In this document: in pieces, positions 2,557 through 24,000 of the stretch
How the letters are laid out: the number at the start of each line of letters is the position of its first letter
How positions within the stretch are numbered: position 1 is the first letter of the stretch
From: Metabacillus lacus
GTDB taxonomy: Bacteria > Bacillota > Bacilli > Bacillales > Bacillaceae
DNA length: 24,000 bases
Direction of reading: 5' to 3'
Assembly (NCBI RefSeq): GCF_009674805.1
Contig: NZ_WKKI01000028.1
Span: 22,774 to 46,773 of the forward strand
The notes under the pieces: generated by a model
What the model saw: only the letters and a program-made list of their open reading frames with translations
What the model was told of the DNA's origin: nothing
The model's database searches: none
Position numbers and translations under genes: made by a program

Positions 2557-2600
2557 TCCATTCAGTCCTTCCCTGCCGTTTTCCCCACACTATTTCTATA

Positions 2601-2703: not shown

Positions 2704-2707
2704 TGCA

Positions 2708-4774
2708 TTATTTTGCGATATTATATTTTTCCATTTTATAATACAGGCTTCTTAGGGAAATTCCTAACGCCTTAGCTGTGTTAGTTCTGTTGTAACCGTT
2801 GTTTTCCAAGGCTGCCCTGATGATTTTGGCTTCCTGCTCTTCCATCAGGTCTGCCAGAGCAGCTCCCTCTGGCCAAATATCTGCTTCAGCTTGTGCTTTA
2901 TGCAGTTTGCTTCTGCTTTCCGTTAACGGCGGCAGATGTTCAGCCCCTATGAAAGTTTCACTAAGATTCATGAAGATAATGGCCCTTCCCAGAACATTCT
3001 CCAGTTCGCGCACATTTCCCGGCCATTCATATTTCATGAATGTTTCCATCGCCTTTTGCTCCACACCCGAAATATTCCTGCCGTAATCCTGGTTCAGCTT
3101 CCGAATGAGGTGAGAGCACAGAGAGGGAATATCACCTTTTCTATTTCTAAGGGGAGGAATGGAAATTGGATAGCGGTTCAGCCTGTAATACAAATCTTCC
3201 CGAAAGGAACCGAGGGCCATCGCCTTTTCAATATTCACGTTGGTTGCCGCAATCACCCTGACATTAATGGGCAGAGGTTTGGTTCCTCCAACTCTGACAA
3301 TTTCTTTTTCCTGAAGCACCCTTAACAGTTTTGCCTGCATGCTTGCTGAGAGTTCGCCAATCTCATCCAGGAAAATGCTTCCATTGTTTGCTTCTTCAAA
3401 GAAGCCTCTTTTCCCGCCTCTTTTCGCTCCTGAAAATGCACCTTCTTCATAGCCAAACAACTCGCTTTCCAGGAGGTTTTCAGAAATAGCCGCACAGTTG
3501 ACTCTTATAAATTTGTTATATTTTCGGTCGCTGCCATTGTGTATAGCATGTGCAAATAATTCTTTTCCCGTTCCTGACTCTCCCCTTAAAAGGACGGTCG
3601 CAGGAGTTTTCGCACCAAGCTTGGCCTGTTCCACAGCAACCTGCATCTCTTCACTGCCTCCGATAATATCAGCAAATGAATATTTCGCTTCCAGCGTCCG
3701 GATGATTTGCCGCGCTCTGTTTAACTCCGCAGTCAAGGTCTGAATTTCAGAAACATCATGAATGACACCTACACTGCCCTTCAGGATGCTGTCAACAATT
3801 ATTGGAGCGACATTCACGAGTACCTCTCTTTTATGAGGCCCAACCTTCATTCTCGCTCCCCTGACAGGCCTTCTTGTTTGAAGGACTCTAACATGCATGC
3901 TGTCCCCTTCAGAAATGTCAATATCAGCAGGCTTTCCGATTACCTGATCTTCCGTCAGCCCTGTCATCCTTGTATACGCTGGATTGATCAGCAGACCCCT
4001 GCCCTCTTCATCCACTACAGAAATGGCCTCATCTGAAGATTGGATAATCGCCTGCAGCATTGTTTGTATTTCTTTAAGGTTGGTAATTTCCTCCGCCAGC
4101 TGAACAACCTCTGTGATGTCTTTAAAGAGAGAAAGAGCACCGAGCAGATGGCCGGTATCATCAATAATCGGCATTCTTGTGGAGATAATTTTCAATCCAT
4201 TTTCAAGTATCTGCTCCTGATTGTATTCAGCCTCCCGCGTCTCAAGGATGGAGGGGAGTTTGCTTGAAGGAACAATTTCCTGAATTTTGCGGCCCAAGAC
4301 CTCATTTTTGCTTTTACCGGTAATTTGTTCTGCAGTTTTATTAAATAAAAGTATTGTTTCTTCTGTATCTATAAATATCATGCCGTCGTTCGTACTGTTA
4401 AAGATCGTATCGTGCTTATAAGTTTCTTCTCTCAGCCGGGTGATGAGCGACTGTTTTTCCTCTATCAAGTCTGTAATAATATGAGCTACTGCACCCGGAA
4501 TAATGACAGTTTTGCTGCTTCTTAATGTTAACAGAGACTGCAGGACATCCTCGCTGCCAGTTGCCTCAATCACGATGTCTATCTGATCTGACATTAACGG
4601 CTTCCAATCTTTACTGGTTAAAATCCCCAGATTTCTTGCATATGTAATACCGGGAGCGTTTTCATTAATGTCTACAACCGCAATCACTTCCATCTTCTGC
4701 GTTTCATAGATCATTCGAAGCAAAGCAGTTCCCCCGATTCCTGCTCCCACTAACATAACCCGCTGCATCATCAA
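2708..4774 (-). CDS. bkdR: Sigma-54-dependent transcriptional activator with PAS domains (BkdR)
   Basis: 688-aa ORF. It has an N-terminal Rossmann-like region ([10 protein letters not shown]), PAS-like repeats, and an AAA+ sigma-54 interaction module (GESGTGKE Walker A; GAFSGA, a variant of GAFTGA). The C-terminus has a Fis-type HTH ([20 protein letters not shown]). Confidence 0.9.
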
Positions 4775-4816
4775 AACCCCTTTATTGAATACAATTGCAC
4801 AGGTAAATAATGTATA

Positions 4817-4830
4817 TGCAATTTATTGCA
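4817..4830. promoter_or_regulatory. Perfect-arm palindrome TGCAAT-TT-ATTGCA in the bkdR leader; candidate autoregulatory operator
   Basis: This is the same motif family as the two palindromes upstream of ptb. It lies 8-21 nt downstream of the predicted bkdR -10 box. Confidence 0.45.
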
Positions 4831-4837
4831 CATAACT

Positions 4838-4865
4838 ATCATATCATGTTTTCATACCTTGACAA
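4838..4865 (-). promoter_or_regulatory. Candidate sigma-A promoter of bkdR
   Basis: The minus strand reads TTGTCA (4860-4865), a 16-nt spacer, then TATGAT (4838-4843). Confidence 0.5.
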
Positions 4866-4887
4866 ATCCTTTTTTGGAGAAGAAAAT
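4859..4887 (+). promoter_or_regulatory. Candidate sigma-A promoter of yqzF
   Basis: The plus strand reads TTGACA (4859-4864), a 17-nt spacer, then GAAAAT (4882-4887). Its -35 hexamer overlaps the -35 of the divergent bkdR promoter. Confidence 0.4.
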
Positions 4888-4916
4888 AATTTATATCAAG
4901 AATAAGGGGCTATGAA

Positions 4917-5171
4917 ATGTCTAGAATCACAGCATTACTGATCATGGTTATACCAGGGGTACTGGCAGCTTACGGGATTAAATTAATGAGAGATATGCTT
5001 TTCGGCATATTGCAGCCGCCTATTCCCTTTTTGTGGCTCCAATTTTTAATTGGTCTAATATTGTTCGCGGGCGGACTTAGTTTTGTAGCAGGCTTTGTTT
5101 TTTACAGGGATAAAAAAAGAAATAAAGTTCAGGCCAAATTTCAGAAAAAAAAATCCCTGCCATCTAAGTAG
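4917..5171 (+). CDS. yqzF: Small two-TM membrane protein, YqzF/DUF2627-like
   Basis: 84-aa ORF with AAGGGG 8 nt upstream of the ATG. It has two hydrophobic helices and a Lys-rich tail. Its position, divergent from bkdR, matches B. subtilis yqzF as I recall it. Confidence 0.7.
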   Translation: MSRITALLIMVIPGVLAAYGIKLMRDMLFGILQPPIPFLWLQFLIGLILFAGGLSFVAGFVFYRDKKRNKVQAKFQKKKSLPSK

Positions 5172-5901
5172 CAGGGATGAGTACTCTCGCTTTTTCCGGA
5201 TAATCTGTAAAAAAGCCGGAACAATTTTGCTCGTAAAGTTCCTTCATAATTGCTTCATTGTTAACAGTAAAGGGCCTGACAGAAATCCCTCTTGCCTGAG
5301 CACTAACAATAATATCCCTGTTAACAGCATAAACATGCGGGTGCAGAGCCCCGGCTTTGAGCTTAGCTGCATATTCCCACGGCTTATACAGTCCTTCAGA
5401 ATACAGCACGCCCAGCTCAATCTCTTCTGACAATTCTCTGCATTTTGCAAGACTGTAATGATTGAATGAAGAAAGTATTGCTGCTTTCTCCATTTGAAAA
5501 TTACGGATGATCTTAATCACTTTTTCTTCAATACCCTCATAATCAATAATTCCGTTCTTCAGCTCTATGTTGACAAGAAAATGAGGGATCGAGGCAGCCC
5601 ATTGCAGTACTTCTTCCAGCAGAGGGATAGGCGCATGACCTGCATAATCAGCAAACTTGTAGCTGGCATCAGCCTTACTGAGTTCCCTGTATGAAAAGTC
5701 TTTTACAAAACCCTTAAGGTTTGTTGTTCTGTCCAGCTTCTCATCATGAATAACGACAATTTGGCCGTCACTCGACATTTGTACATCCAGCTCAATGCCA
5801 TCTGCACCCGCTTCAAAAGCAGCTTTAAAAGAAACCATTGTATTTTCAGGGCACGTACCTGCAGCCCCTCTATGTCCAAAAATCTGAGTCAATTTCAACA
5901 C
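5164..5901 (-). CDS. yqiK: Glycerophosphodiester phosphodiesterase
   Basis: 245-aa ORF with the GDPD signature FGHRGAAGTCPENT and IELDVQMSSDG. It starts at GTG with only a weak SD, so the exact start is uncertain. Confidence 0.85.
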   Translation of the reverse strand: MLKLTQIFGHRGAAGTCPENTMVSFKAAFEAGADGIELDVQMSSDGQIVVIHDEKLDRTTNLKGFVKDFSYRELSKADASYKFADYAGHAPIPLLEEVLQWAASIPHFLVNIELKNGIIDYEGIEEKVIKIIRNFQMEKAAILSSFNHYSLAKCRELSEEIELGVLYSEGLYKPWEYAAKLKAGALHPHVYAVNRDIIVSAQARGISVRPFTVNNEAIMKELYEQNCSGFFTDYPEKARVLIPAT

Positions 5902-5925
5902 CGCCTTATAGATAGGAGATAAATA

Positions 5926-6075
5926 ATGAGACCTTTACAAATTTCAGCTGAGACAGCTGAATTGCTTTCAAAAAAACTGGGTATACCACTTCATGAGCTC
6001 ATGCATATGCCTCAGCATATTTTGCTTGCAAAGCTGGCAGAGGCAGAAAAGGAACAAGATCAGAAAAACAGTTGA
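5926..6075 (+). CDS. Hypothetical 49-aa protein, below the ORF-track size cutoff
   Basis: AGGAGA at 5914-5919 lies 6 nt upstream of the ATG at 5926. Hand translation gives MRPLQISAETAELLSKKLGIPLHELMHMPQHILLAKLAEAEKEQDQKNS, with the stop at 6073-6075. A terminator hairpin follows about 20 nt later. I do not recognise the family. Confidence 0.5.
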   Translation: MRPLQISAETAELLSKKLGIPLHELMHMPQHILLAKLAEAEKEQDQKNS

Positions 6076-6097
6076 AAAGAAATGATAAAAAATTCAA

Positions 6098-6120
6098 AGG
6101 CCGGAAAATGCTTCCGGCCT
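6098..6120. terminator. Bidirectional rho-independent terminator shared by spo0A and the 49-aa ORF
   Basis: AGGCCGGAA-aatgc-TTCCGGCCT forms a 9-bp stem. It is flanked by an A-run on the left (a T-run on the minus strand) and by CTTTCGTTT on the right. Confidence 0.7.
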
Positions 6121-6145
6121 CTTTCGTTTACTCATTCTAACCCTT

Positions 6146-6937
6146 TCAAGAAGCTTTATGCTCCAGGCGAAGCTTATCGGCCACCATGGCGATAAACTCG
6201 GAGTTAGTAGGTTTTGCTTTTGACATGCTGACGGTATAGCCGAACAGCGATGAAATGGATTCAATATTTCCGCGGCTCCAGGCAACTTCAATCGCATGAC
6301 GAATTGCCCTTTCTACACGGCTGGCTGTTGTATTATATTTTTTCGCGATATCAGGATACAATACCTTTGTGATAGACCCGAGAAGTTCAATATCATTATA
6401 TACCATCGAGATAGCTTCTCTTAGATAAAGATAGCCTTTAATATGAGCAGGAACACCAATTTCATGGATAATGCTTGTAATGCTCGCATCCAGGTTAAGC
6501 CCCTTTTTCTCACTTTGAGACCTGAGGACAGAGCTTGTAGAACGTTTTAGGATTGGCTGGCTGTTTCCACTAATCTGGCGGACATGACTTGCAAGGTTTT
6601 CCATGTCAAATGGCTTTAGGATGAAATATGAAGCACCAAGGTCCACAGCTTTTTTCGTGACATCCTCTTGACCAAATGCAGTCAGCATAATGACATTGGG
6701 CTGTTTCTCTTTATCCTGCATACGCATCTTTTCAAGAACGCCCAGTCCGTCTAAATGAGGCATGATGATATCAAGAATCAATACATCAGGGCTTTTATCA
6801 TTCAGCAAGTTCAGGCAGTCCTGGCCGTTATAAGCCACTCCAAGAACTTCCATATCCTCCTGACTTGAAATATACTCATCAAGAAGAGATACCAATTCCC
6901 TATTATCATCTACTATACAAACTTTAATTTTTTCCAC
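6146..6937 (-). CDS. spo0A: Sporulation master response regulator Spo0A
   Basis: 263-aa ORF. The receiver domain reads [15 protein letters not shown]...[14 protein letters not shown]. The C-terminus has the Spo0A-specific DNA-binding region ([12 protein letters not shown]...[18 protein letters not shown]). It starts at GTG with GAGGAGGAC upstream. Confidence 0.95.
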
Positions 6938-6993
6938 GCAAATGTCCTCCTCAGTGTCATGCTATCTCAACATGCTTTGTTCTTTATGAAATT

Positions 6994-7137
6994 TTCGACA
7001 ATTCGGTTCAAATACCTTTTAAAATTAGAAAAAAACTCTAAAAATATAATTATCTTTGTTTTTCTTCAAATTACTCCGTTTTTCGACTTCTTTGTCAATT
7101 TTTCCAAATGAGACCAGTTTTGTCGAATCACATCTTT
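6994..7137. promoter_or_regulatory. spo0A upstream control region with 0A-box matches
   Basis: TGTCGAA occurs exactly at 7131-7137 (plus strand) and at 6994-7000 (minus strand). AGTCGAA, a 6/7 match, is at 7092-7098 (minus strand). spo0A is known to be autoregulated through 0A boxes. I could not place the sigma-H and sigma-A promoters confidently. Confidence 0.5.
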
Positions 7138-7204
7138 ATGACCTATTCTACATGAGATATCCACTGAAATAAAGGAAAAATTAGACCGTATTTACCAGCA
7201 AAAG

Positions 7205-7230
7205 AAAAACTGCAGAATCTTCTTCTGCAG
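7205..7230 (-). terminator. Rho-independent terminator after spoIVB
   Basis: The minus strand reads CTGCAGAA-gaaga-TTCTGCAG, an 8-bp stem, followed by TTTTTCTTTT. It abuts the spoIVB stop codon. Confidence 0.75.
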
Positions 7231-8520
7231 TCAGCTTGCTTCTTTTTTAGGAGCTTTTTCATATATATCAATACCCGCTTCACTCAGCATCCATTCAATA
7301 TGGACACCATATCCGCTTGCAGGGTCATTGACAAAAACATGTGTCACGGCACCTACAAGTTTTCCATCCTGTATGATGGGGCTTCCGCTCATGCCCTGTA
7401 CAATACCGCCAGTTTTTCCGATGAGTTCTTTATCCGTTATTTTAATGACCATTCCTTTGGTGGCAGGAAACTTTTGAGGAACAGCACTGATAATTTCTAC
7501 ATCAAATTCCTCTACTTTGTCATCGTTCACGACCGTCAGTATTTTCGCAGGCCCTTCTTTTACTTCATGCGACAAGGCAATTGGAAGAGCTTTATCCATA
7601 ATTCCATTCTCAATGCCCTCATCCAGCTTGCCGAATATACCAAACGGACTGTTTTTCGTAATATTTCCGATTATTTTTCTATCTTCTGAGAAGCGGGCCA
7701 GCTTTTCACCCGGATTTCCATTGCTTCCTTTTTCAATAGAGGTTACTGTTGAGCGGACAATTTGTCCGTCCTGGACAACAATAGGCTTTTTTGTATCCAT
7801 ATCGGATATGACATGTCCCAGAGCTCCATATTTCTTTGATTGAGGATCTATGAATGTCATCGTTCCAATACCTGCAGCTGAGTCTCTGATATACAAGCCG
7901 ATTCTGAAGGCATCATCATTCACATCTTTAAGGGGGACCAGTTTCGCTTGAATTTCTTTATTGTCTCTTGAAATAACTAAATTCAAGGGTTCACCTGTTT
8001 TTCCTGCTTCCTGAATAAAAGGAGTGACATCATTCATTTTTTCAATTTTGGTTCCATTGATGTTGGTGATAATATCCCCAACCTGTACCCCGGCAATCTC
8101 GCCTGGAGATTGTTTGCCTTTAGCCGTTGTTACCTCATGATGTCCGACAACGAGCACTCCGAGAGAATTCAGCTTGACACCTATTGACTGTCCGCCCGGA
8201 ATTACTTTAAAGTCCGAGAGAACTTTTACCTGAGTCTTTTTAACGGGTATGCCTGCTATATCAAAAACAAGTTGTGCTTCTCCGCTGTTTTTTCCTGCCA
8301 GTACGAGCTGATCTCCTGACTGCTGCAGTGAGAAGGCTTGGCTGGCGTCTGGTGAAGCTGCAACTGCCGAAGCATTTACCATGGTACTTTCCTGGTTTTC
8401 AAATACCGTTACATTTTTCGGTATTGCCAGGTATTCTTTAAAAGGATGAACAAAACCTAAGCTTGTTAGAAATACAAGGAGAATTACACCTGTTATTTTT
8501 CTAATATTTTCTACATTCAC
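7231..8520 (-). CDS. spoIVB: SpoIVB signalling serine peptidase (S55 family, with PDZ domain)
   Basis: The ORF has an N-terminal signal anchor ([18 protein letters not shown]), a PDZ region, and the S55 catalytic region ([23 protein letters not shown]). I place the start at GTG 8518-8520, which has GAGGAGAG 7 nt upstream. The ORF-track version (to 8550) has no SD. Confidence 0.9.
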
Positions 8521-8629
8521 TTTTTCACTCTCCTCGCTCCTAACCCACACACCATTCCTTCTTCGATGGCTACATCCTTTAATTTTGCCTACAGCTGCAG
8601 GTTTTATAACTGGAAACTAAGAAGACAGT

Positions 8630-8652
8630 AAAAAAACTGCCCTTAGGCAGCT
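8630..8652 (-). terminator. Rho-independent terminator after recN
   Basis: The minus strand reads AGCTGCC-taag-GGCAGTT, a 7-bp stem that includes one G-U pair possible only on the minus-strand RNA. It is followed by TTTTT. Confidence 0.6.
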
Positions 8653-8657
8653 TATAA

Positions 8658-10367
8658 TCAGTTTTTGGCAGCAGAAGCCAGCAGCAAAAGTTCCTTTGCG
8701 TGCTTTCGGGTTAAATCCGTTACTTCTACTCCTGCGATCATCCGGCCGATTTCCCGGATTTGCTGATCTTTTTTTAGTGCTTTTACGCTGGTGGTTGTCC
8801 GGCCGTTATGTTCCTCTTTTGAGATATACAGATGTGTATCCGCCATAGCTGCAACTTGAGGGAGATGGGTGATGCACAATACTTGTGATCCAACGGCAAC
8901 CCTGTAAATTTTTTCGGCAATTGACTGTGCAACTCTTCCGCTCACACCGGTGTCCACCTCATCGAATATAATGGATGTCACACCTTGATGTTCAGAAAAA
9001 ATACTCTTCATCGCAAGCATGATTCTGGAAAGCTCACCGCCTGAAGCAGTTTTTGACAAAGGCTTCAGCGGCTCTCCCGGATTTGTAGACAAGTAAAACT
9101 CTGGTGAATCCATTCCGTCCTGTTTAAAAAAGGAGGCTTTTACCTCACCGCTCTGTTTACTTTTATCTTCAAAGTGAACTTCAAATTTCGTTTTTTCCAT
9201 GTACAATTCCTTTAATTCCCGTTCTATTTCATTCTTCAGTGAAGCTGCAGCCTTTTTCCTCACAGATGTCAGATGCTGTCCTTCTACTAACAAATCCGCT
9301 TCAACCGAGTCCAGCTCTTTTTTTAAGTTGGCAATATGGCTGTCCCTGTTTTGAATACTGTCAATTTCCTCTTCAATGGCTGCTGCGTATTCCAGAATGG
9401 CTTCGACATTGTGGCCGTATTTTCTTTTCAGCTGTGAGATTTCATTCAGCCTGCTTTCAATAATATCCAGGCGGTTAGGATCAAACTCAAGGGAATCAAG
9501 CTCGTTTCGAAGGCTGTATGACAATTCTTCAAGCATATAGTAATGGTTGGACATCGTTTCTGACATTTCTTTCAGTTTTTCATTTATGCCTGCAACATCT
9601 TCAAGGGAGCTCATTCCAAGCCCAATCCAGTCGAGCGCTTTTTGTTCACCATGCAGTGCATTATAAGCATTTTGAAGGGAGTCATATATCTTTTCGAAAT
9701 TGGCTATCTGCCGTCTTTCTTCTTCGAGCTCTGTATCCTCGCGCAGCTGTAATTCTGCTTTTTCTATTTCCTGCAGCTGAAAGGAAATTAGATCAAGCCG
9801 GTGAGCCATCTCCTGTTCATTTTCAGAAATTTGCTTTAGTTTTTTATTCAATTGAGTATATTGCTTATAAATTTCCTGATAATTTTGAAGTGCAGAAAAT
9901 ACCTCGGCCGCTCCATACTGATCAAGAAGCTCCAGATGATTTTCTTCATTCATCAGCTCCTGGTTATCATGCTGGCCGTGTATGTCAACAAGAAGCCGGC
10001 CGATCTCCCTAAGTATAGCCAGAGTTACCAATTTGCCATTTACCCGGCAGATGCTTTTACCCGAACTGGATATATCCCTTCTTAATACGACCATTCCATC
10101 CCCGGCTTCAATCCCCAGTTCTTCACATTTCTTAAAACACGGGTGGCCGTCTTCTTCGAGGAGGAACAAACCTTCCAGTTCAGCGCGTTTTTCTCCATAT
10201 CTGACAAACTCGGAGGAGCCTCTTCCTCCTGCAAGCAGGTGTATGGCGTCTATCATAATGGATTTACCTGCTCCTGTCTCACCGGTCAGCACGGTCATTC
10301 CTTTTTCTAATGAAACAGACAGGGACTCGATGATTGCAAAGTTTTTAATGGAAAGTTCCGCTAACAA
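8658..10367 (-). CDS. recN: DNA repair protein RecN
   Basis: 569-aa ORF with SMC-like architecture. It has a Walker A motif (GETGAGKS), a long coiled-coil middle section, and a C-terminal signature/Walker B region (SGGELSRIMLA...IIFDEVDTG). Confidence 0.95.
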   Translation of the reverse strand: MLAELSIKNFAIIESLSVSLEKGMTVLTGETGAGKSIMIDAIHLLAGGRGSSEFVRYGEKRAELEGLFLLEEDGHPCFKKCEELGIEAGDGMVVLRRDISSSGKSICRVNGKLVTLAILREIGRLLVDIHGQHDNQELMNEENHLELLDQYGAAEVFSALQNYQEIYKQYTQLNKKLKQISENEQEMAHRLDLISFQLQEIEKAELQLREDTELEEERRQIANFEKIYDSLQNAYNALHGEQKALDWIGLGMSSLEDVAGINEKLKEMSETMSNHYYMLEELSYSLRNELDSLEFDPNRLDIIESRLNEISQLKRKYGHNVEAILEYAAAIEEEIDSIQNRDSHIANLKKELDSVEADLLVEGQHLTSVRKKAAASLKNEIERELKELYMEKTKFEVHFEDKSKQSGEVKASFFKQDGMDSPEFYLSTNPGEPLKPLSKTASGGELSRIMLAMKSIFSEHQGVTSIIFDEVDTGVSGRVAQSIAEKIYRVAVGSQVLCITHLPQVAAMADTHLYISKEEHNGRTTTSVKALKKDQQIREIGRMIAGVEVTDLTRKHAKELLLLASAAKN

Positions 10368-11916: not shown

Positions 11917-13818
11917 TTAAATCCTTTTTTCTGTGATGGGTGTCATGCTGATAATTCTTTGAACAGCAGAATCCGCGGTTAAATGAATCTCCTCAAGCAG
12001 TTTCGCTACGCTTCCATGCTCTATAAATTCATCCGGTATGCCCATTCGGTCAATCACTGCGCCATAATATTTGTGCTCCTGGGCAAATTCCAGTACAGCA
12101 CTGCCAAAACCGCCCTGCAAAACCGCTTCCTCTATCGTTAGAATCGGAAGTTTTTCGGATAATATACTATGCATCATTTCATTGTCAAGCGGCTTGATGA
12201 ACCTTGCATTCACAACCCGGACGAATATTTCCTGCTCAGCAAGTTTTTCGGCAGCTTCCATAGCCATCCCGATTGTCGTGCCAAAAGTAAGAATGACTGC
12301 ATCGCTTCCTTCTCTTAACACTTCCCAGGATCCTATTGGAATTGCTTTTAAATTCTTATCCATTTCAACCCCGAGGCCGTTTCCTCTGGCAAACCTCATA
12401 GCAATTGGCCCCAAGTCATAATCAATGGCTGTTTTCACCATATGCTGCCCTTCATTTTCATCCTTAGGCATCATCAATACCATGTTTGGTATATGCCTTA
12501 AAAACGCAATGTCAAAGACACCCTGATGCGTTTCTCCATCTGCTCCAACCAGGCCGGCTCTGTCAACACCGATAAACACATTTAAATTCTGCCTGCAGAT
12601 ATCATGAACAACCTGATCATAAGCTCTTTGAAGGAAAGTCGAGTAAATCGCCAAAAACGGCTTCATATTTTGAGTTGCGAGCCCTGCTGCCATAGTAGCC
12701 GCATGCTGTTCGGCAATACCAACATCATACATCCGGTCAGGAAATTCCGATGCAAACCCTTCCAGTTTTGATCCTACAGGCATTGCCGGTGTGATCGCAA
12801 CAATTCGTTCATCCGTTTTCGCGAGCTTTCTGACAGTTTCACTGACCAGGCCGCTCCAAGAAGGGCCTTTGGTTGAAGACTTCACAAAATCGCCGGTTTC
12901 CATTTTATAAGGGCCTGTCCCATGCCATGTTCCGACAGTATCAGTTTCTGCAGGCTGATAGCCTTTGCCCTTTTTCGTAATGACATGGAGAAGCACAGGT
13001 CCTTTTGTTTTCTTGGCATAGCGGAGATTTTCCTGAAGATCTTCAAAATTATGTCCGTCTACCGGACCCAGATATGTAAAGCCTAGTTCTTCAAAGAAAA
13101 CACCTGTAACCAAAAGATATTTTAAGCTGTCTTTTACGCGCTCAGCAGTACTCGCGAGCGCACCGCCTACAGCAGGAATCTTTTTAAGCAGAAGTTCAAG
13201 CTCATCTTTTACCCAGTGATATTTACCTGCCGTTCTCAGACGGCCAAGGACGTTGTGCAAAGCGCCTACATTCGGTGCGATGGACATTTCATTGTCGTTT
13301 AAGATGACAATCATATCTTTTTTTTCGTGGCCTATATGATTTAGTGCCTCCAGAGCCATTCCGCCTGTTAACGCACCATCTCCAATAATAGGTATAACAA
13401 AGTCTTTAGTCTTTTTCAGGTCTCTTGCAATTGCCATTCCCATGCCTGCAGAGAGAGATGTTGAGCTGTGCCCTGTTTCCCATACATCGTGTTCGCTTTC
13501 ATTTCTTTTTGGAAACCCGCATAACCCTTTATGCTGACGCAAAGTATCAAATTCACAAGCACGCCCGGTAAGGATTTTGTGGACATACGATTGATGCCCG
13601 ACATCCCATATAAACTTATCATCAGGGCTGTTGAAAATCTTATGAAGAGAGATGGTCAGTTCCACCACTCCTAAATTGGGACCGATATGGCCGCCAGTGA
13701 CTGACAGCTTTTCGATTAAAAATTGCCGAATCTCAGCACTAAGCTTTTCTAGCTCATTATTCGACATTTTTTTTAAGAATTCCGGATTTTTAATCGATAA
13801 AAGATCCAATCGGATCAC
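11917..13818 (-). CDS. dxs: 1-deoxy-D-xylulose-5-phosphate synthase
   Basis: The ORF has the TPP-binding motif [15 protein letters not shown] and transketolase-like domains. The longest ORF starts at GTG 13816-13818, directly abutting the upstream stop codon. TTG at 13807-13809 gives MDLLSIKNP..., which matches the B. subtilis Dxs N-terminus as I recall it and may be the true start. Confidence 0.95.
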
Positions 13819-14424
13819 TCACTTTCGACTGTTATTTCGTTTCTTTTTCTTTTTATCATTTAATAAGCTTATGTTAAACCGCTTTTCGAGCAAATAAAAC
13901 AGCTTACCGACCTGATATATTATATCAGTTGAAAATCTGATTGCAATTGACTTGCCAAAGGCCTTGCCGCCCACTGTCATAGCTGCAATCACACTTGTGA
14001 ATATCACAGATATAACGAGCTGCTGATAGGAAGCTTCCCCAAATTGAAAGCTGAATGACAACTGAACAACTACAATAGCTGAGGCTGTCCCGCTGATAAT
14101 CCCTGATATATCTCCAATAACGTCATTACAGAAACTCGCAAATCTGTCGGCATTTCTAATAATGACGATAGCCTGTTTCGCTCCATCCACTTTTTTGGAT
14201 GCCATAGCATGAAACGGCACTTCATCTGCTGCTGTTGCTGCTATACCAAGCATATCAAAGAAGACACCAATTAGTACAATAATAAATACAATTCCCATGC
14301 CGATCGCCCAGCCAACGCCGCCCAGCGTTGCAGTAGCTACAACTGAAAAAATAGCCGCTAACACAAATGTGATAACGGCAATTCCCAAACTCCAATTTAT
14401 AGAATCTCTGAATAAATCTTTCAT
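13819..14424 (-). CDS. oapA: Four-TM membrane protein, candidate OLE-associated protein A
   Basis: 201 aa, with four hydrophobic helices at roughly residues 12-33, 38-63, 102-122 and 136-156, and a Lys-rich C-terminal tail. It lies immediately downstream of the OLE-like RNA with no intervening terminator, and immediately upstream of dxs. This is the position and the size (about 21 kDa, 4 TM) described for OapA. The assignment is by context and topology, not by sequence search. Confidence 0.7.
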   Translation of the reverse strand: MKDLFRDSINWSLGIAVITFVLAAIFSVVATATLGGVGWAIGMGIVFIIVLIGVFFDMLGIAATAADEVPFHAMASKKVDGAKQAIVIIRNADRFASFCNDVIGDISGIISGTASAIVVVQLSFSFQFGEASYQQLVISVIFTSVIAAMTVGGKAFGKSIAIRFSTDIIYQVGKLFYLLEKRFNISLLNDKKKKKRNNSRK

Positions 14425-14463
14425 AAGGTTATATTCGCACCTAACTTAACAAATTATGTATGC

Positions 14464-15078
14464 GGAGTGGTCATGGATAAAGTAAAAATTACGGCTTAGG
14501 TCCAGTAGGTTTTCCCAAGCAGGTACCGAGCGTTGCCACTCTGGCGGTTTCCCTTTAAACCTCCCTTAGCATTGTCACCAGATGCTAGACTGGATTACCA
14601 CTTAGTCCGTACTATAATCCCTTATCATGCCACATTGAACAGTCTAGGAGATTTCCTCAACAGCCCTTAACCCATTCCTATCCTCTTTTGCAGAGCTGAT
14701 TTCATCCGGTATATAAAGCCGCCGCCATTGGCCATATGGCTGTTGCTGTATGGAACCGAAATCCCCTCAAACTCCACTCAAGGCAGGCTACGCTGCACTA
14801 ATCCATTTTCCTTTAGTAAGAAAAATAAATTCGATAGCAGGTTTTATACCCTTATTTTATATCAAATAAATCAAATAAAATAAGGGCCTCCGCGGAAAGA
14901 GGGTCTACGCCCACATGCCATTGTGGATCGCCCTCAAACCTTAACTCCCGGCATCAGCCCAAGGCTGGGCGCCTCAAGCCGACACAAGGAACTTCATCGA
15001 TGTGCCCTTTAGCGGATTTTTAGGCCCGCCCTCGGAACAGGTAGGCTGACTAGAATACTGCACCACTCCTGAAAATGT
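14464..15078 (-). ncRNA. ole: Large structured non-coding RNA, OLE (ornate, large, extremophilic) class; ends approximate
   Basis: The gap at 14425-15230 has no ORF of 60 aa or more on either strand, inside an otherwise tightly packed operon. By hand count G+C is about 57% over 14881-15060 and about 53% over 14521-14580, against AT-rich flanks. A dedicated promoter ends about 7 nt upstream of 15078. An 8-bp helix pairs the 5' end (GGAGUGGU, 15062-15069) with the 3' end (ACCACUCC, 14464-14471), enclosing about 600 nt, and there are many internal helices (see findings). The order ispA-RNA-membrane protein-dxs-tlyA-argR-recN matches the reported OLE locus of B. halodurans as I recall it. No covariance-model search was possible. 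Confidence 0.7.
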
Positions 15079-15084
15079 AACTTA

Positions 15085-15113
15085 ATTATAGCATATTTAT
15101 GTGGTAATCTCAA
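15085..15113 (-). promoter_or_regulatory. Sigma-A promoter driving the OLE-like RNA
   Basis: The minus strand reads TTGAGA (15108-15113), a 17-nt spacer, then TATAAT (15085-15090), a perfect -10 box. Confidence 0.65.
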
Positions 15114-15195: not shown

Positions 15196-15223
15196 GCAAA
15201 AAAAGAGCATATGTTATGCCCTT
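15196..15223 (-). terminator. Rho-independent terminator or attenuator after ispA
   Basis: The minus strand reads AAGGGCAU-aacau-AUGCUCUU, 8 bp including one G-U pair that works only on the minus-strand RNA. It is followed by UUUUU and begins 8 nt after the ispA stop. Confidence 0.7.
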
Positions 15224-17722: not shown

Positions 17723-18589
17723 TTACCTTGAGGTTTTCTCTGATAAAAATTGTTTGGCTGCTTTTACAGTATTGTAGGCCAGCATTGCAATTGTCATCGG
17801 CCCGACACCGCCCGGAACAGGCGTAATATAGCCGGCAACCTGCTTTGCTTCTTCAAAGTCAACATCGCCTGTGAGTTTGCCGTTGTCCATTCGGTTGACT
17901 CCAACATCAATGACAACCGCTCCCGGCTTTATATCTATCCCTTTTATCAAGTGTGCTTTACCGGCTGCAGCAATAAGAATATCAGCCTGCCTTGTATATT
18001 CTGATAAATTTTTTGTTCGTGAATGGCAGTAAGTGACGGTTGCATGCTGATCCAAAAGCAGCTGGCCGACCGGTTTCCCAACAATATTGCTTCTCCCGAC
18101 AACGACCGCATGCTTTCCTTCGGGAGAGATGCCTTGAGATGACAACAATTTCATAATGCCTGCAGGTGTGCAGGATAAGTAAGTATCCTCACCCGCCAGC
18201 ATTTTTCCTGTATTTAACGGATGAAATCCATCAACGTCCTTTAAAGGAGAAATCCTTTCAATTACAGCTTTTTCTTCAATATGCTTAGGAAGAGGTAGCT
18301 GAACCAGGATGCCATGAAAGGACTCATGCTCGTTATAATAGTCGATTTTCTCTAATAATTCCTGCTGCGTTGCGGATTCCGAAAGATGGTTCAGTGTAAA
18401 GTGTATGCCGGTTTCTTCAGATGCCTTTTGTTTACCTTTTATGTATGATAGAGAAGCAGGATCATTTCCAACCAATATCACAGCCAGTCCCGGCACGACA
18501 TTCTCTTGTTTAAGTTTTTCTACTTCTTCGCTCAGTTCAGCGCGCACCTTTTGTGCCACTTCTTTACCATTGATAATAGATGCCAACAT
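17723..18589 (-). CDS. folD: Bifunctional methylenetetrahydrofolate dehydrogenase/cyclohydrolase
   Basis: 288-aa ORF with FolD motifs ([17 protein letters not shown]; [13 protein letters not shown]; [10 protein letters not shown]). Confidence 0.95.
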
Positions 18590-18605
18590 ACAATCTCCTC
18601 CGCTT

Positions 18606-18992
18606 TTATAAAGAATTTTTCACGTTAGAGAGCACGCCATTGACAAATCGGCTTGAAGAGTCGTCACCGAACGTTTTTGAAAGTTCAATCGCTTCATCAA
18701 TTGACACTGACACAGGAATTTCTTCCATGAATCTCATTTCAAAGACAGACATTCTAAGTACGGCACGGTCAACATTAGCTAGACGTTCAAGAGTCCACTT
18801 TACCAGATGGGGTTTGATAAGAGCATCAATTTCTTCCTGATGCTTCAGTGTCCCATTTACAAGCGTTTCTAAAAATGGATCGTTTTCCTTTCCGTCCAAT
18901 GCATGCTGGATGGCCTCTGATGGCTCAATCCCGCTTACATCAATTTGAAATAATGCCTGCAAGGCTACTTCTCTAGCTGTTCTGCGTTTCAT
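18606..18992 (-). CDS. nusB: Transcription antitermination factor NusB
   Basis: 128-aa ORF starting MKRRTAREVALQALFQ, with GAAGGAG 7 nt upstream of the ATG. Confidence 0.95.
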   Translation of the reverse strand: MKRRTAREVALQALFQIDVSGIEPSEAIQHALDGKENDPFLETLVNGTLKHQEEIDALIKPHLVKWTLERLANVDRAVLRMSVFEMRFMEEIPVSVSIDEAIELSKTFGDDSSSRFVNGVLSNVKNSL

Positions 18993-19850
18993 TGTTTTAA
19001 CTCCTTCAATTGTGGTTCGAATGTCTTAAACAGATAATAACATATAACAAAGTGGAAAAAAACCGTAAATATACTGTTTTCCTCTTGAATTCCGAATGTT
19101 ATTACCCTGCGTTTATTAATCATTCGCTTTTTATTGTTTAATGGTTTTTTACTTAGTACTTGCTGAGGAAACTGGTTAAGCACCATTTTTCAGTTAATAG
19201 ACGTCACATATCCATTTAATTTGATATGGCGGTAAAAAAAGCCGGGAATAGCCGGAGACATTCCGTCTCTTAGCGTTTACTATCGTACAAACGGGGTTTC
19301 ATCAGCATAGCCGTAAAGTTTCTGCTTATTTTTCTTAAAAAAGTGATTCTCTGGACGTATGAGAAAAAGCTCCTCTTATTACTCTTTCGTCGGTGAATCA
19401 ATTGATGCTGATACACTTGAATATTCCTTGGAGCTTGTTTAGATCGACAACAAGAAACCTTCCATCAAGCATAATTATATAGCACAGCCTTCTTGAAAAG
19501 GCGGGATAACCATCTGAAGCCGGATCCTGCCCTCTTAAGTGATTTCAATATTATATAGTATTGCCTGCGGATTGAATAGTAAAATTGCAACTTCAAATAA
19601 AATTGCCGAGAGTATCTTTTGTGTACGCTGTTTTCCTGCACCATTAGTGGATCGCACTCGGCTGTACAGGCAGCTCAGCCGACAGAGCAGCTGCGCACTT
19701 GTCTGGTATTTGTAGCTTGAATCGCACTGCTTCATCTTCTTATAACTATATCACAAGTTTACTATCTCTTTTGAGGCTTTTTGCCTGACGAGAGTACTGT
19801 CAGCTTCCTGCTGAGTTCATCTTGGAGGGAATATATGCTTTCCTAACACA

Positions 19851-19891
19851 GAAAAAGCAAAAAGCCCCTTTAACAAAAGAGGCTTTTTTGC
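19851..19891 (-). terminator. Strong rho-independent terminator after yqhY
   Basis: The minus strand reads GCAAAAAAGCCUCUUU-uguu-AAAGGGGCUUUUUGC, a stem of about 15 bp, followed by UUUUUC. One pair is G-U on the minus-strand RNA but a C-A mismatch on the plus strand. Confidence 0.8.
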
Positions 19892-19899
19892 TCATAATA

Positions 19900-20310
19900 T
19901 TACATTTCTTGATCAATCTCAGTTTCTTGCGTTTTTACTGATTCAAACTGCACACCTACAACATGAACATTTACTTCATTAATATTTAGTGCGGTCATAT
20001 TCAGAAGAGCCTGCCTGATATTGTCTTGAATTCTTTGTGCCACTGCCGGGATCGAAACGCCAAAGATCATCACACAGTAGATATCTACAATAATGCCTTC
20101 TTCAGATAGCTCAACTTTCACACCTTTGCCGTGGTTCTTTTTGCCGAGGCGTTCAACTACACCAGCTGCAAAATTCCCGCGCATTTGGGCTACTCCATCA
20201 ATTTCGGAAGCAGCTATTCCAGCAATCACTTCAATGACTTCCGGAGCGATCTCTACTTTACCCAGCCCGTTTTCTTCCTGGCCCATTTCAAGTATTTTAT
20301 TTTCTTTCAC
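19900..20310 (-). CDS. yqhY: Asp23/Gls24-family alkaline shock protein
   Basis: The 136-aa ORF reads GLGKVEIAPEVIEVIAGIAASEIDGVAQMRG..., typical of the Asp23 family. It starts at GTG with GGAGGTG 6 nt upstream. The position after accC matches B. subtilis. Confidence 0.9.
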   Translation of the reverse strand: MKENKILEMGQEENGLGKVEIAPEVIEVIAGIAASEIDGVAQMRGNFAAGVVERLGKKNHGKGVKVELSEEGIIVDIYCVMIFGVSIPAVAQRIQDNIRQALLNMTALNINEVNVHVVGVQFESVKTQETEIDQEM

Positions 20311-20332
20311 TTAAGGCACCTCCAATATTGAA

Positions 20333-21685
20333 TTAAGCGTCCATTAATGGATGTAATTCCAAAAATTTGGTATTGAATTCTCCGCCTGTAAATACATCAT
20401 GCGAAAGAAGTTTCAGATGGAAAGGGATTGTTGTGGAAACTCCCTCTATAACAAATTCATTAAGAGCACGTTTCATTCTTGCGATCGCTTCATCCCTGGT
20501 TGCTCCATATGTAATTAATTTTGCAATCATTGAATCGTAATAAGGCGGAATCATATAACCGGGATATACCGCTGAATCTACTCTAACACCCAGGCCGCCG
20601 GGGGGCAAGTACATTTCAATTCTCCCTGCAGAAGGCATAAAGTTTTTATAAGGATTTTCAGCATTTATTCTGCATTCAATTGCCCAGCCGCTGAAAGTCA
20701 CTTCTTCCTGAGACACTGAAAGCTGCTTTCCGGATGCTGCGTATATTTGTTCTTTGATAAGATCAATGCCGGTTACCATCTCGGTTACAGGATGCTCTAC
20801 TTGAATCCTTGTATTCATTTCCATGAAATAGAATTTTTGTTCCCTATAATCAAAAATGAACTCAATTGTTCCTGCACCTGTGTAATTTACAGCCTGTGCT
20901 GCTTTAACGGCCGCTGAGCCCATCTGTTCCCTGACCTCTTCCGAAAGCGCCGGAGAAGGTGTTTCTTCCACAAGCTTCTGAAGTCTTCGCTGAATTGTGC
21001 AGTCTCTCTCACCCAAGTGAATCACATTTCCATGAGAATCAGCCAGCACCTGTATCTCCACATGGCGGAAATCTTCAATATATTTCTCAATATACACACC
21101 GGGATTTCCAAAAGCAGTAGCAGCTTCCTGCTGGGTGATTTGCAGCCCCTTAATCAGCTCCTGCTCATTTTTCGCTACACGAATTCCTTTTCCGCCGCCG
21201 CCCGCAGTTGCTTTCAAAATGACGGGATAGCCAATTTCTTCTGCTAAAGAAACTGCATCTTTTTCATCTTTGATGATTCCTTTGGATCCTGGCACTATCG
21301 GAACATTGGCTGCCCTCATCGTTTCTCTGGCAACATCCTTTGTTCCCATTTTATTAATTGCATCAGAGCTTGGCCCGACAAAAATGATGTTGCACTCTTT
21401 GCAAAGCTCGGCAAAATCAGCATTCTCGGCTAAAAATCCATATCCGGGATGAATGGCGTCACAAGCTGTCAGCTTTGCTACGCTCAATATATTAGTGATA
21501 TTTAAATAACTGTCTTTAGAAGCAGTCGGACCGATACAATAGGCTTCATCAGCAAGCTGAACATGGAGCGCTTCCCGGTCAGCTTCCGAAAAGACAGCAA
21601 CAGTTTCTATCTCCAGTTCTCTGCATGCCCTGATAATCCGTACTGCAATTTCTCCTCTATTGGCAATTAACAATTTCTTTATCAT
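20333..21685 (-). CDS. accC: Acetyl-CoA carboxylase, biotin carboxylase subunit
   Basis: 450-aa ATP-grasp enzyme ([17 protein letters not shown]...; GGGGKGIRV; [14 protein letters not shown]). Confidence 0.95.
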
Positions 21686-21696
21686 ATTACCGCTCC

Positions 21697-22206
21697 TTAT
21701 TCAGGCTTTACTAGGAATAAAGGCTGTCCATATTCTACAAGCTGCCCGTTTTCAACTAGTATTTCCACCACTTCTCCGTTAACCTCAGCTTCAATTTCAT
21801 TAAACAGCTTCATCGCTTCCACTATGCATACGACAGAGTCTTTGGAAACTTTAGAGCCATTTTTGACAAAAGCTTCGGCATCAGGGGAAGAAGCAGAATA
21901 AAAAGTTCCCACCATTGGAGATGTAATTTTAACGAAGCTGCCGGCACCGGCTGATTGAGAGTCTTTTGTTTCTTTCTGTTCGGCCTTAGGAGCCTCAACA
22001 GCTTCCGGCGCTGCAGCTGCAGGAGCTGGCTGCTGAGCAGGCTGAACAGCCGGCGCAGAAGGAACAGACTGAATAACCTCTTGTCCTTCAAGGACAGCGT
22101 TTTTCTTCATTTTAATTTTAGAACCTTCATGTTCGTAGGTAAACTCATCAATAGATGATGTATCAATCAATTTAATAAGTTCACGGATTTCTTGGATTTT
22201 CAGCAT
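21697..22206 (-). CDS. accB: Acetyl-CoA carboxylase, biotin carboxyl carrier protein
   Basis: 169 aa, with an Ala/Pro-rich linker and the biotinyl-lysine motif [11 protein letters not shown]. Confidence 0.95.
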
Positions 22207-22254
22207 GAATAGTGCACCCCTTAAAGAATGTTTACAGAATTATTGTAAGATACT

Positions 22255-22283
22255 AATATTTTATAATCTAGTACTAAAATCAA
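22255..22283 (-). promoter_or_regulatory. Candidate weak sigma-A promoter of accBC, with a FapR-operator-like sequence as its spacer
   Basis: The minus strand reads TTGATT (22278-22283), then the 17-nt spacer TTAGTACTAGATTATAA (22261-22277), then AATATT (22255-22260). The spacer matches 13 of 17 positions of the FapR operator TTAGTACCAGGTACTAA as I recall it, and one half-site (TTAGTAC) is perfect. An alternative promoter, TTTAAG-17-TATAAT, lies at 22403-22431. Confidence 0.3.
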
Positions 22284-22532
22284 GTGATATAATTACATCT
22301 TACGATAGACAGAGGCAAACATTCAACAGTTTCTCAAAAATTGGTATGGCCACCTTCTCTTTTTAGGGAATACTGCCTGATTATTTTTGCTTCCTATCAG
22401 CTATTATAATGCAAAAACACATTGGCTTAAACGATTGGGTATTCTGCCGTTTCCTCATTCACATGCAAAAGGCCCGCAATTTTAAAATATAGATAGCATA
22501 CCAATATGGTTAGACTTCCACCATTCCTAAAC

Positions 22533-22580
22533 AAAAAAATGACAAAAGGCAGTGAGAAGGACTTCCCACTACCTTTTGCC
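22533..22580 (-). terminator. Long rho-independent terminator after the spoIIIA operon
   Basis: The minus strand reads GGCAAAAGGUAGUGGGAAG..CUUCUCACUGCCUUUUGUC, up to 19 bp, followed by AUUUUUUUG. Three of the pairs are G-U on the minus-strand RNA and would be A-C mismatches on the plus strand, which fixes the functional strand. Confidence 0.8.
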
Positions 22581-22614
22581 GACAATCTGCAGCCTGCTCC
22601 AGCAGGCTTTATTC

Positions 22615-23364
22615 CTAATTATTAGAAGGTTCAAAGGTGACAGCAACATCTTCCATCTTGTCTATTTCACCTTTTACCAGCATGATGATTTCGTTGGCTT
22701 TTGCTGCTGTTGCTTCCTTGCTCTTGACTGTGATTTTCACTTTGTTTCCATCAGCGCGCACTAGCGCATCATCATACCCCCGGGATTTTAAAAGAGTTTC
22801 AAGGATAGATTCTTTTGCCGCGATATCCTGTAATTCTCTCAGCTCGTCATACGCCCTGCTTTTTTCCACTGCTGATACATCCTTGTTTGCCACAGTATCC
22901 TGAAGCTCTTGTTTACGCTCGCTTCTCGCATCCTCAAGTTCCATTCTCATTGTGGTAAACAGTTCATCGCTCTCAACGCTTGAGATAACAGTTCCATCTT
23001 CAAGCTCTTCTGTTACTGCATCTTCTTCAGTTTGCTGCTTGCCATCCTTGGATGTGCCCGGCTGCTCGCCATCTTTTCCAGGCTGTTCTGCCCCTTCTTT
23101 ATCAGCAGCCCCGTCATCTTTAGGCTGTTCGCCGTCTTTAGGCTTTTCTTCTCCTGCAGGCTGTTTTTCTTCTGCAGGTTTTTGTTCACCCTTTTCGCTT
23201 TCTTCTGTCATTTGATCAATGGACTGCCCTTCAGACTTTTCGCCATTACCTGTCATCACGACATTATTTGTATCGTTTTCAGGTGATGTAATATAATACA
23301 CAGAAAGTACTACGACCAGGCTAAGCATGGTCAGCAACCATACAGTTTGTTTCTTCAGCATCAT
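22615..23364 (-). CDS. spoIIIAH: Stage III sporulation protein AH
   Basis: 249 aa, starting with the membrane anchor MMLKKQTVWLLTMLSLVVVLSVYYIT. An acidic, low-complexity linker follows, then a C-terminal YscJ/FliF-like domain. Its position after spoIIIAG fits. Confidence 0.9.
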   Translation of the reverse strand: MMLKKQTVWLLTMLSLVVVLSVYYITSPENDTNNVVMTGNGEKSEGQSIDQMTEESEKGEQKPAEEKQPAGEEKPKDGEQPKDDGAADKEGAEQPGKDGEQPGTSKDGKQQTEEDAVTEELEDGTVISSVESDELFTTMRMELEDARSERKQELQDTVANKDVSAVEKSRAYDELRELQDIAAKESILETLLKSRGYDDALVRADGNKVKITVKSKEATAAKANEIIMLVKGEIDKMEDVAVTFEPSNN

Positions 23365-23377
23365 TTATAATTCCTCC

Positions 23378-24000
23378 TCAACCTTTTTTAGCTGCAACTG
23401 CAACCTGATGGCTCGGCACACCGAGCACTCTGGTAACTGCATCAATGATATTTTTCTTTATTTGAACGTTGTCTGCCCCTTTGGCCACAACGAGTACACC
23501 GCGAATGTCAGGTTTTTTGGTTTGAAGGACGAGAGGTGTCTCTTGTTCTCCGTTTTTGTACATCACTACCTGCTCATCTATCTGCTGATCTGTTACTTTT
23601 CGTGTTCCGCCTTCGCGATCACTTTCATCAGTGGTCTGGCTTTGTGATACACGATTTTTTTCAATGACCTTCATGGAAGTGGCGTCTACGTTAACAAGTA
23701 CTGTGACATCCTCCACGCCTATCATTGTTTCCAGCGCTTCCTTGAGCTGCGTCTCGTACTGATTTTCATAATCTTTAATAGATCCTTTTTCTGCTTCATT
23801 CGATGATTTAAAGACTTCAGCATCATCCTGTACAGCTTCCTCAGAAGCCGGGATGGACGGTCCTGCATGTTGTTCTGTAGTAAGGAGATTACTGATCAGC
23901 ATAAAGGAAATTCCTGCTGCCAGGAGAAGAAGAAAATAGTGGGATTTGCTCAGCTTGCCATCCCCGCTTCCCTTCCCCTGCAAAAGAATTTTTAGTTTAT
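23378..24000 (-). CDS. spoIIIAG: Stage III sporulation protein AG; N-terminus lies beyond the right edge
   Basis: The reading frame stays open upstream of the TTG at 23983 to the window edge (..KLKILLQGKGSGDGKLSKSHYFLLLLAAGISFMLISNLL). This aligns with the region just before the single TM helix of B. subtilis SpoIIIAG, so the true start is probably outside the window. Confidence 0.85.
   Translation of the reverse strand, partial: KLKILLQGKGSGDGKLSKSHYFLLLLAAGISFMLISNLLTTEQHAGPSIPASEEAVQDDAEVFKSSNEAEKGSIKDYENQYETQLKEALETMIGVEDVTVLVNVDATSMKVIEKNRVSQSQTTDESDREGGTRKVTDQQIDEQVVMYKNGEQETPLVLQTKKPDIRGVLVVAKGADNVQIKKNIIDAVTRVLGVPSHQVAVAAKKG

Follow-up and report, generated by a model that had tools for sequence, protein, structure and literature searches.

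We describe here a locus of Metabacillus lacus at which a gene for OLE RNA is followed by the gene of a small membrane protein. The window, that is, the whole stretch of DNA analysed, comprises 24,000 nt (contig NZ_WKKI01000028.1 of assembly GCF_009674805.1, positions 22,774-46,773), and the protein is encoded at 13819..14424 on its minus strand by an open reading frame (ORF) with an ATG start, a TGA stop and 201 amino acids. A full-length OLE RNA gene (Rfam RF01071) occupies 14451..15082 on the minus strand, so that its 3' end lies 26 nt before the ATG on the same strand; the match scored 489.2 bits (E = 6.4e-141, gathering score 50), spanned model positions 1-616 of 616, and was the single match above threshold in an Rfam scan of the whole window. 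The deduced protein has a computed mass of 21.66 kDa and a pI of 9.7 and matches WP_154308542.1 from Metabacillus (Bacillus) lacus at 100% identity, an entry that is annotated as a "hypothetical protein". An earlier note, made from the sequence alone, had proposed this ORF, "directly downstream of the RNA", as candidate OapA; its coordinates were exact, and its "downstream" is correct on the minus strand, which it had left unstated. On the evidence set out below, the ORF is almost certainly oapA, the gene of OapA (OLE-associated protein A), the membrane partner of OLE RNA.

The identification draws on comparison with Halalkalibacterium (Bacillus) halodurans, whose OapA, a membrane-spanning protein of 21 kDa, is encoded in tandem with ole and restricted to ole-containing organisms (PMC9723947). 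The protein encoded next to OLE in that species (200 aa; labelled P0083 here) shares 66% identity with the M. lacus product over 201 of 201 residues (E = 3e-94), and in the H. halodurans contig its gene comes immediately behind an OLE RNA of full length (538 bits). P0083 itself can be identified through PM1, a dominant-negative H. halodurans OapA that carries the substitutions D100A and D104A (PMC9723947): counted along the alignment, precisely these two positions, 100 and 104, are Asp in P0083, within the segment NDVIGD, and because these match the published residues P0083 is identified as OapA. The M. lacus equivalents are D101 and D105. The two loci also share their gene order, which reads nusB-folD-xseA-xseB-ispA-ole-ORF-dxs-tlyA-argR-recN in the M. 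lacus window (Pfam scans) and folD-xseA-xseB-ispA-ole-P0083-dxs-FtsJ/TlyA-argR-recN in H. halodurans. The homology search that the earlier note had recommended thus came out in favour of its candidate, and the size, topology and position on which it had relied fit OapA as well.

Relatives of the protein were found in large numbers. At E <= 1e-3, M. lacus OapA matched 3652 database proteins, and a HMMER search over 1.84 billion cluster representatives returned 1048 clusters (50% identity) at the same threshold and 774 at E <= 1e-10; among the best 150 of the 1048 matched clusters, nearly all lengths fell at ~180-280 aa. The association with OLE was followed in a species scan that drew on one genome per species for 185,579 species and held at least 592 relatives, of which the best 80, each from a different species of Bacillales, were examined as a sample rather than a census. 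OLE was located upstream on the same strand in all 80 loci by an nhmmer profile built from the OLE sequences of M. lacus and H. halodurans, with a median gap to the gene of 37 nt (range 19-230), and for 20 of the more divergent loci Rfam confirmed a full-length RNA in every case. Four distant relatives of Clostridia/Tissierellia type (Marinisporobacter, Clostridium sp. Cult3, Keratinibaculum, and one metagenome contig), at 39-46% identity, likewise have OLE directly upstream according to Rfam (4 of 4) and keep the xseAB-ispA...tlyA-argR-recN neighbourhood. Orthologues lacking the RNA, which the earlier note had named as evidence that would speak against its proposal, were not seen among these 84 loci (80 Bacillales species and the four of Clostridia/Tissierellia type); near-complete mutual inclusion of OapA and OLE has been reported before (PMC11332333).

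The genes around the pair vary. At the Marinisporobacter locus (L083) a DUF212 gene (1877-2320) sits between ispA and ole, and at the other three distant loci (L084, L085, and L086) dxs is missing and the FtsJ/TlyA methyltransferase gene comes straight after oapA; in a changing neighbourhood, ole and oapA together therefore make up the constant core. As a separate observation, a Bacillaceae-1 small RNA was recorded by Rfam near ole-oapA in two Bacillales genomes (46.8 and 39.6 bits; gathering score 35), at 2052-2116 on the plus strand of locus L074, ~215 nt upstream of OLE, and at 5580-5644 on the minus strand of locus L072.

Hydropathy and predicted structure agree on a four-helix membrane protein. 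When 51 diverse members with 32-65% identity to M. lacus OapA were aligned, residues D57, D101, G104, G112, K154, and K158 showed no variation, and position 105 was Asp in 50 of the 51 and in 57 of the 57 members of another alignment. Kyte-Doolittle hydropathy, in 19-residue windows above 1.6, marks four regions (~11-34, 36-64, 102-126, and 133-156), and an AlphaFold2 model based on the diverse 57-sequence alignment (predicted local distance difference test score, pLDDT, 79.4; predicted template modelling score, pTM, 0.68) has helices at 2-35, 39-65, 69-76, 82-90, 92-125, 133-163, and 165-183, four of them long, and a disordered tail. Both the four hydrophobic helices and the poly-Lys tail that had been pointed out in the earlier note are thus present. 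A first AlphaFold2 model, computed from a shallow Bacillaceae-only alignment, had reached a pLDDT of 63, was unusable, and was replaced.

The first transmembrane helix (TM1, ~residues 12-33; 14326..14391, on the minus strand, as are all parts of the protein given here) is marked by hydropathy and by the AlphaFold2 helix 2-35. It has no counterpart in CNNM domains, whose profile match starts at residue 45, and it would serve as a signal anchor or else as a signal sequence; the N-terminal segment of C. botulinum OapA has been called a signal sequence (PMC12265935). The end of TM1, A30-T31-A32 (14329-14337), is an A-x-A similar to the sites of signal peptidase I; it is not conserved, most homologues having S-T-x there. 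TM2 (~residues 39-65; 14230..14310), delimited by hydropathy, AlphaFold2, and conservation, contains the invariant GxFFD motif (G53, D57), and it is followed by a putative cytoplasmic loop of residues 66-95 (14140..14229) with two modelled helices (69-76 and 82-90), a conserved E68-x-PFH motif, and a basic cluster (K77, K78, K83, R90, and R94) that leaves the loop net positive in 90-96% of family members. TM3 (~residues 96-125; 14050..14139), supported by the same three lines of evidence as TM2, opens with the invariant FCNDVIGDISG, in which lies the DxxxD motif D101-V-I-G-D105 (14110..14124), aligned to D100/D104 of H. halodurans OapA and described as a hallmark of OapA (PMC11332333). TM4 (~residues 133-153; 13966..14028; hydropathy and AlphaFold2 helix 133-163) leads into a GGKAFGK motif at residues 152-158 (13951..13971), which profile alignment sets against CNNM GExxPK. 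Basic residues continue after TM4 (K154, K158, R163, K174, K181, and R182) up to the basic C-terminal tail, KKKKKRNNSRK in translation (residues 191-201; 13822..13854), and the protein ends in DKKKKKRNNSRK.

In 90-100% of family members the 66-95 loop, the post-TM4 region, and the tail carry a net positive charge (82-100% when the N-terminus is counted with them), and the loops at 34-38 and 126-132 are short and neutral. By the positive-inside rule, this indicates an N-in/C-in topology with four transmembrane helices, in which both termini and the 66-95 loop are predicted to be cytoplasmic. The C-terminal tails taken by themselves have a net positive charge in 92-96% of members and have no position-by-position alignment, so that the basic tail is a family feature in composition only; in the M. 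lacus model the tail is disordered, with pLDDT below 50, and the contact with RNA for which the earlier note had considered it is therefore conjectural.

No terminator was recognised between the RNA and the ORF, in agreement with the earlier note: a terminator pattern scan of the OLE-oapA gap on the minus strand returned no site, and folding of 14415-14540 gave a stability no better than that of shuffled sequence (z = 0.89). A 7-bp stem (GCUUGGG...CCUAAGC, 13-nt loop) followed by CGUAAUUUUUAC is present at 14481-14519 on the minus strand, in the 3' region of the OLE model; it was not accepted as an intrinsic terminator because it lies inside the Rfam OLE model and in the region whose stability does not exceed that of shuffled sequence. 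On the other side of the RNA, a consensus scan found a promoter-like site at 15085..15113 (minus strand; TTGAGA, 17-nt spacer, upstream TG, and TATAAT, with 11 of 12 matches) that stops 3 nt before the start of the OLE model and is a candidate promoter of ole, or of ole-oapA. H. halodurans OLE has its own experimentally active proximal promoter in a similar position, which lifts OLE expression more than 100-fold, and some OLE also arises in shared transcripts with neighbouring genes (PMC3413148). Just past the ispA stop, a terminator-like hairpin with a T-run (15203..15223, minus strand; 9 bp, 3 of them G-C, then TTTTTGCGCT) may divide ispA from ole; it is a pattern match, and the arrangement would be like that of H. 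halodurans. Co-transcription of ole and oapA in M. lacus is therefore plausible, and it is likely but not the whole story. In H. halodurans a several-fold rise in OLE RNA gives a modest rise in oap mRNA (PMC3413148), and because the two differ in this way, processing or differential stability must intervene.

The family is distantly related to a known transporter domain. Pfam aligns residues 45-179 of M. lacus OapA with positions 2-127 of the CNNM profile (PF01595, formerly DUF21) at 22.8 bits, below the cut-off of 28.4, and it gave no CBS or CorC_HlyC match in the protein; across the family, PF01595 was matched at E <= 0.01 by 47 of the 57 members (best 1.2e-7), and E. coli YfjD, a genuine CNNM-CBS-CorC protein, scored 182.5 bits with CBS and CorC_HlyC in addition. 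When the AlphaFold2 model, itself of moderate confidence, was compared with the PDB by Foldseek, the top three matches all came from MtCorB, an archaeal CNNM transporter (7M1T_B, 7M1T_A, and 7M1U_A; E = 0.013-0.064, probability 1.00, query TM-score 0.40-0.52), and all others had E > 2.8. Fernando and Breaker had already reported 7M1U as the top structural match of H. halodurans OapA, together with weak CNNM homology, one transmembrane helix more than CorB, a DxxxD motif that is absent from CNNM, and the loss of a conserved CNNM proline (PMC11332333), and the results for M. lacus reproduce that account. Confident homology to a different characterised family, which the earlier note had regarded as the way in which its proposal could fail, was not found, the sub-threshold CNNM match being a published property of OapA (PMC11332333). 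A Pfam match to TrbC/VirB2 pilin (18.5 bits, sub-threshold), recorded in just 2 of the 57 family members, was set aside as hydrophobic-helix noise. OapA helices 2-4 are a reduced and distant CNNM/DUF21 transporter domain from which the cytosolic CBS and CorC_HlyC domains are missing.

The Mg2+ site of the CNNM domain was compared with OapA by hhalign, in which the OapA profile was aligned to E. coli YfjD and also to a four-sequence CNNM profile (TpCorC, MtCorB, YfjD, and human CNNM4). Both runs gave E = 0.0026 and the same register, in agreement with the Pfam coordinates; the alignment is a distant one, and near D105 the runs are a single position apart (N90 vs N91). In TpCorC, Mg2+ is held by Ser43, Ser47, Asn90, Gly129, and Glu130, with Pro133 and Lys134 nearby (PMC7875539). 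The hhalign counterparts in OapA are G53 for Ser43, D57 (14254-14256, minus strand) for Ser47, D105 for Asn90 (a register that could be off by one), G153 for Gly129, K154 for Glu130, G157 for Pro133, and K158 for Lys134, and across the family each of these seven varies little or not at all. Expressed as motifs, SxFFS of CNNM becomes GxFFD in OapA, GN becomes GD, and GExxPK becomes GKxxGK, so that four of the five ligand positions (S43, S47, N90, and E130) are replaced family-wide. The alignments lead us to suggest that a buried polar site has been kept with altered chemistry, two Asp and one Lys standing for two Ser, one Asn, and one Glu. With four of five ligand positions replaced, OapA would not have the canonical CNNM Mg2+ site, which argues against a canonical CNNM Mg2+ transporter and stays compatible with cation binding by carboxylates. 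The open-access accounts of OapA cited here name the DxxxD motif and the missing proline, and not the Glu-to-Lys exchange.

Position, size, four transmembrane helices, DxxxD motif, basic cytoplasmic faces, homology, and co-occurrence with OLE all support OapA identity at the level of sequence, and no evidence contradicting it was found among the sequence-level comparisons. Several points nevertheless weigh against parts of the account given here. Co-transcription is based on the 26-nt gap and the absent terminator pattern, and OLE and oap levels are partly uncoupled in H. halodurans (PMC3413148). The Shine-Dalgarno match AGGTG is placed 13 nt upstream of the start codon of oapA, which is unusually far, and is the sole sequence of its kind in 14425-14450 on the minus strand. 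TM1 could be kept as a helix or be cleaved off as a signal sequence, the AlphaFold2 model is of moderate confidence (pLDDT 79, pTM 0.68), and no experimental OapA structure was found among PDB sequences searched with the family profile. That search returned neither OapA nor CorB, its best results being chance matches to coronavirus spike HR1 (E = 0.45-0.83). As regards the start of the gene, no alternative in-frame start exists, a TAA lying 24 nt upstream of the ATG, and the start Met coincides with that of the homologues in the alignment; the long Shine-Dalgarno spacing may mean weak or regulated translation. GGTG matches at 11-15 nt spacing recur in ~14 of the 84 related loci.

The weak Shine-Dalgarno spacing is also the one observation, and nothing else is, that speaks for a spurious ORF or for a small hydrophobic peptide gene unlinked to OLE, a notion to which we attach practically no probability. 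It is refuted by conservation: amino-acid homologues occur in 1048 clusters at 50% identity, the OapA family has invariant motifs, and length and gene order are kept from Bacillales to the sampled Clostridia/Tissierellia-type relatives. An ordinary Mg2+ exporter of the CNNM/CorB/MpfA type, placed next to ole by chance, would agree with the database names of homologues and with the weak PF01595 match, but that match stays below the Pfam gathering threshold (22.8 vs 28.4 bits), and the protein has 201 aa and lacks CBS and CorC_HlyC, whereas E. coli YfjD has all three domains. Moreover, OapA has an extra N-terminal helix, the Mg2+ ligands and the proline are not conserved, and a place next to OLE in each of the 84 loci sampled is not due to chance; such an exporter is very improbable and has effectively been refuted.

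Closer to the published discussion is the role of OapA itself, which has also been proposed as a CNNM-related divalent-cation transporter (PMC11332333, PMC12265935). The earlier note had called the protein the "membrane anchor" of the OLE ribonucleoprotein; the OapA identity behind that phrase is supported, while "anchor" covers part of current thinking. OapA might primarily transport or sense a divalent cation through its CNNM-like helices, with OLE RNA replacing the regulation by CBS and CorC domains and tethering being secondary, which we consider possible, if on the doubtful side. The distant but consistent CNNM homology and the likeness to the MtCorB fold point that way, as do the invariant charged residues D57, D105, and K154 within the membrane, in places corresponding to the lining of the CorC Mg2+ site (PMC7875539), and so do the Mg2+ sensitivity that follows loss of the OLE ribonucleoprotein and the anticorrelation of OapA with MpfA across Bacillota (PMC11332333). 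Against it stand the replacement of four of the five CorC ligand positions (S43 by G, S47 by D, N90 by D, and E130 by K) and the change of Pro133 to Gly, from which it follows that the CNNM-type site is not conserved, and the cited OapA literature reports no OapA transport assay. A bolder and rather unlikely variant is that the CNNM scaffold has been kept and its Mg2+ site rewired, in every member examined, into a charge-paired intramembrane site (Asp57, Asp105, Lys154, Gly157, and the added Asp101) that is not a Mg2+/Na+ exchanger. Such a site might, for example, bind RNA-phosphate-bound Mg2+ or accommodate the P3 helix of OLE, for which a passage through the membrane has been proposed.

Taking the ORF as oapA, the membrane partner of OLE RNA, a working model can be carried over from the H. 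halodurans orthologue, whose functions and those of its OLE complex are treated in PMC12265935, PMC9723947, PMC3413148, and PMC11332333. Transcription would most likely start at the promoter-like site immediately ahead of ole and continue through ole and oapA into dxs. By analogy with the 66%-identical orthologue, M. lacus OapA would bind the OLE RNA encoded 26 nt upstream. H. halodurans OapA binds OLE RNA cooperatively, with at least two proteins per RNA, and localises the RNA to the membrane, according to Block et al. (2011) as cited in PMC12265935; in M. lacus, too, binding would be expected to be cooperative, with at least two proteins per RNA and, going by the same citing account, sites near P2 and P4a. 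OapA binding would place the OLE ribonucleoprotein at the membrane, and the membrane complex would make the cell more tolerant of cold, of short-chain alcohols, of excess Mg2+, and of poor carbon sources. The invariant acidic DxxxD is presumed to be required for proper OapA function, since its mutation in H. halodurans is dominant-negative, and OapA may also move or sense divalent cations; in the field, both ideas have the standing of hypotheses.

The ole-oapA pair has been described since 2006. The present locus is a textbook copy, a known family in a known arrangement that departs in nothing from the family as described, and it carries little weight as a discovery; its identity as oapA confirms the neighbouring RNA as part of a complete OLE system. 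The locus also exposes a gap in annotation. An NCBIfam scan of M. lacus OapA gave no match, NCBIfam having no model for the family, and none of ~240 homologues among the matches listed carries the name OapA. Their source labels are "hypothetical protein", "CNNM transmembrane domain-containing protein", "CBS domain containing-hemolysin-like protein", or "Mg2+/Co2+ transporter CorB", and those labelled "CBS domain containing-hemolysin-like" carry no CBS domain, so that OapA homologues go unnamed as such or mislabelled. Finally, the comparison with CorC points to D57, D105, and K154 as specific residues that bear on whether OapA transports ions.

Downstream of oapA lies dxs, encoding 1-deoxy-D-xylulose-5-phosphate synthase (11917..13809, minus strand; Pfam DXP_synthase_N, E = 7e-120). 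The ORF finder began dxs at GTG 13818, abutting the oapA stop; the start is most likely TTG 13809, 9 nt past that stop, because the junction CGAAAGTGAGTGxTCCxxTTG/ATG-GAT-CT is conserved in H. halodurans (where Dxs begins MDLEKL...) and in loci L003, L005, L006, L007, and L013, near position 3600. The last oapA codons and the stop (CGA AAG TGA G) give GAAAGTGAG, a Shine-Dalgarno-like ribosome-binding site for dxs (13800-13830, minus strand), and the recurrent "...RK-stop" ending of Bacillaceae OapA may therefore partly reflect a nucleotide-level constraint from this site rather than protein function. A second promoter-like site in the 3' part of oapA (13919-13946, minus strand; TTGCAA, 16-nt spacer, TG, and TATAAT, with 10 of 12 consensus matches) could drive dxs independently. 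The rest of the window (530-10367 and 17723-23983) is ordinary Bacillaceae chromosome, all on the minus strand. Pfam recognised SpoIIIAH, AccB/AccC-type biotin carboxylase components, Asp23, NusB, FolD, XseA/XseB, and IspA on one side, and RecN, SpoIVB, Spo0A, a GDPD phosphodiesterase, a sigma-54 PAS activator (BkdR-like), phosphate butyryltransferase, and a Leu/Glu-type dehydrogenase on the other.

Two known systems provide the measure for this protein. In comparison with CNNM/CorB/CorC/MpfA proteins (MtCorB, 7M1T/7M1U; TpCorC, 7CFF), OapA helices 2-4 and the juxtamembrane helices align with DUF21, and several motif positions of the CNNM helices are shared: the FF of the first, the G before the polar residue of the second, and the G...K of the third. 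The differences are that OapA has neither the CBS pair nor CorC_HlyC and ends at residue 201 with a disordered tail, that it adds an N-terminal transmembrane helix and scores below threshold with PF01595, and that it possesses the DxxxD motif, which CNNM proteins do not, and an OLE RNA neighbour in all 84 loci sampled. With OapA of H. halodurans C-125 (originally OAP) the likeness is as follows: the two proteins are of 200 and 201 aa and ~21 kDa, each with four transmembrane helices, the DxxxD motif stands at D100/D104 in one and D101/D105 in the other, both basic tails end in SRK, and both genes lie in the order ispA-ole-oapA-dxs-tlyA-argR-recN. They differ in the spacer between ole and oapA, which is 49 nt in H. 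halodurans and 26 nt in M. lacus, and in that the H. halodurans protein has been studied experimentally, whereas the M. lacus copy is known here from its sequence and its entry as a "hypothetical protein".

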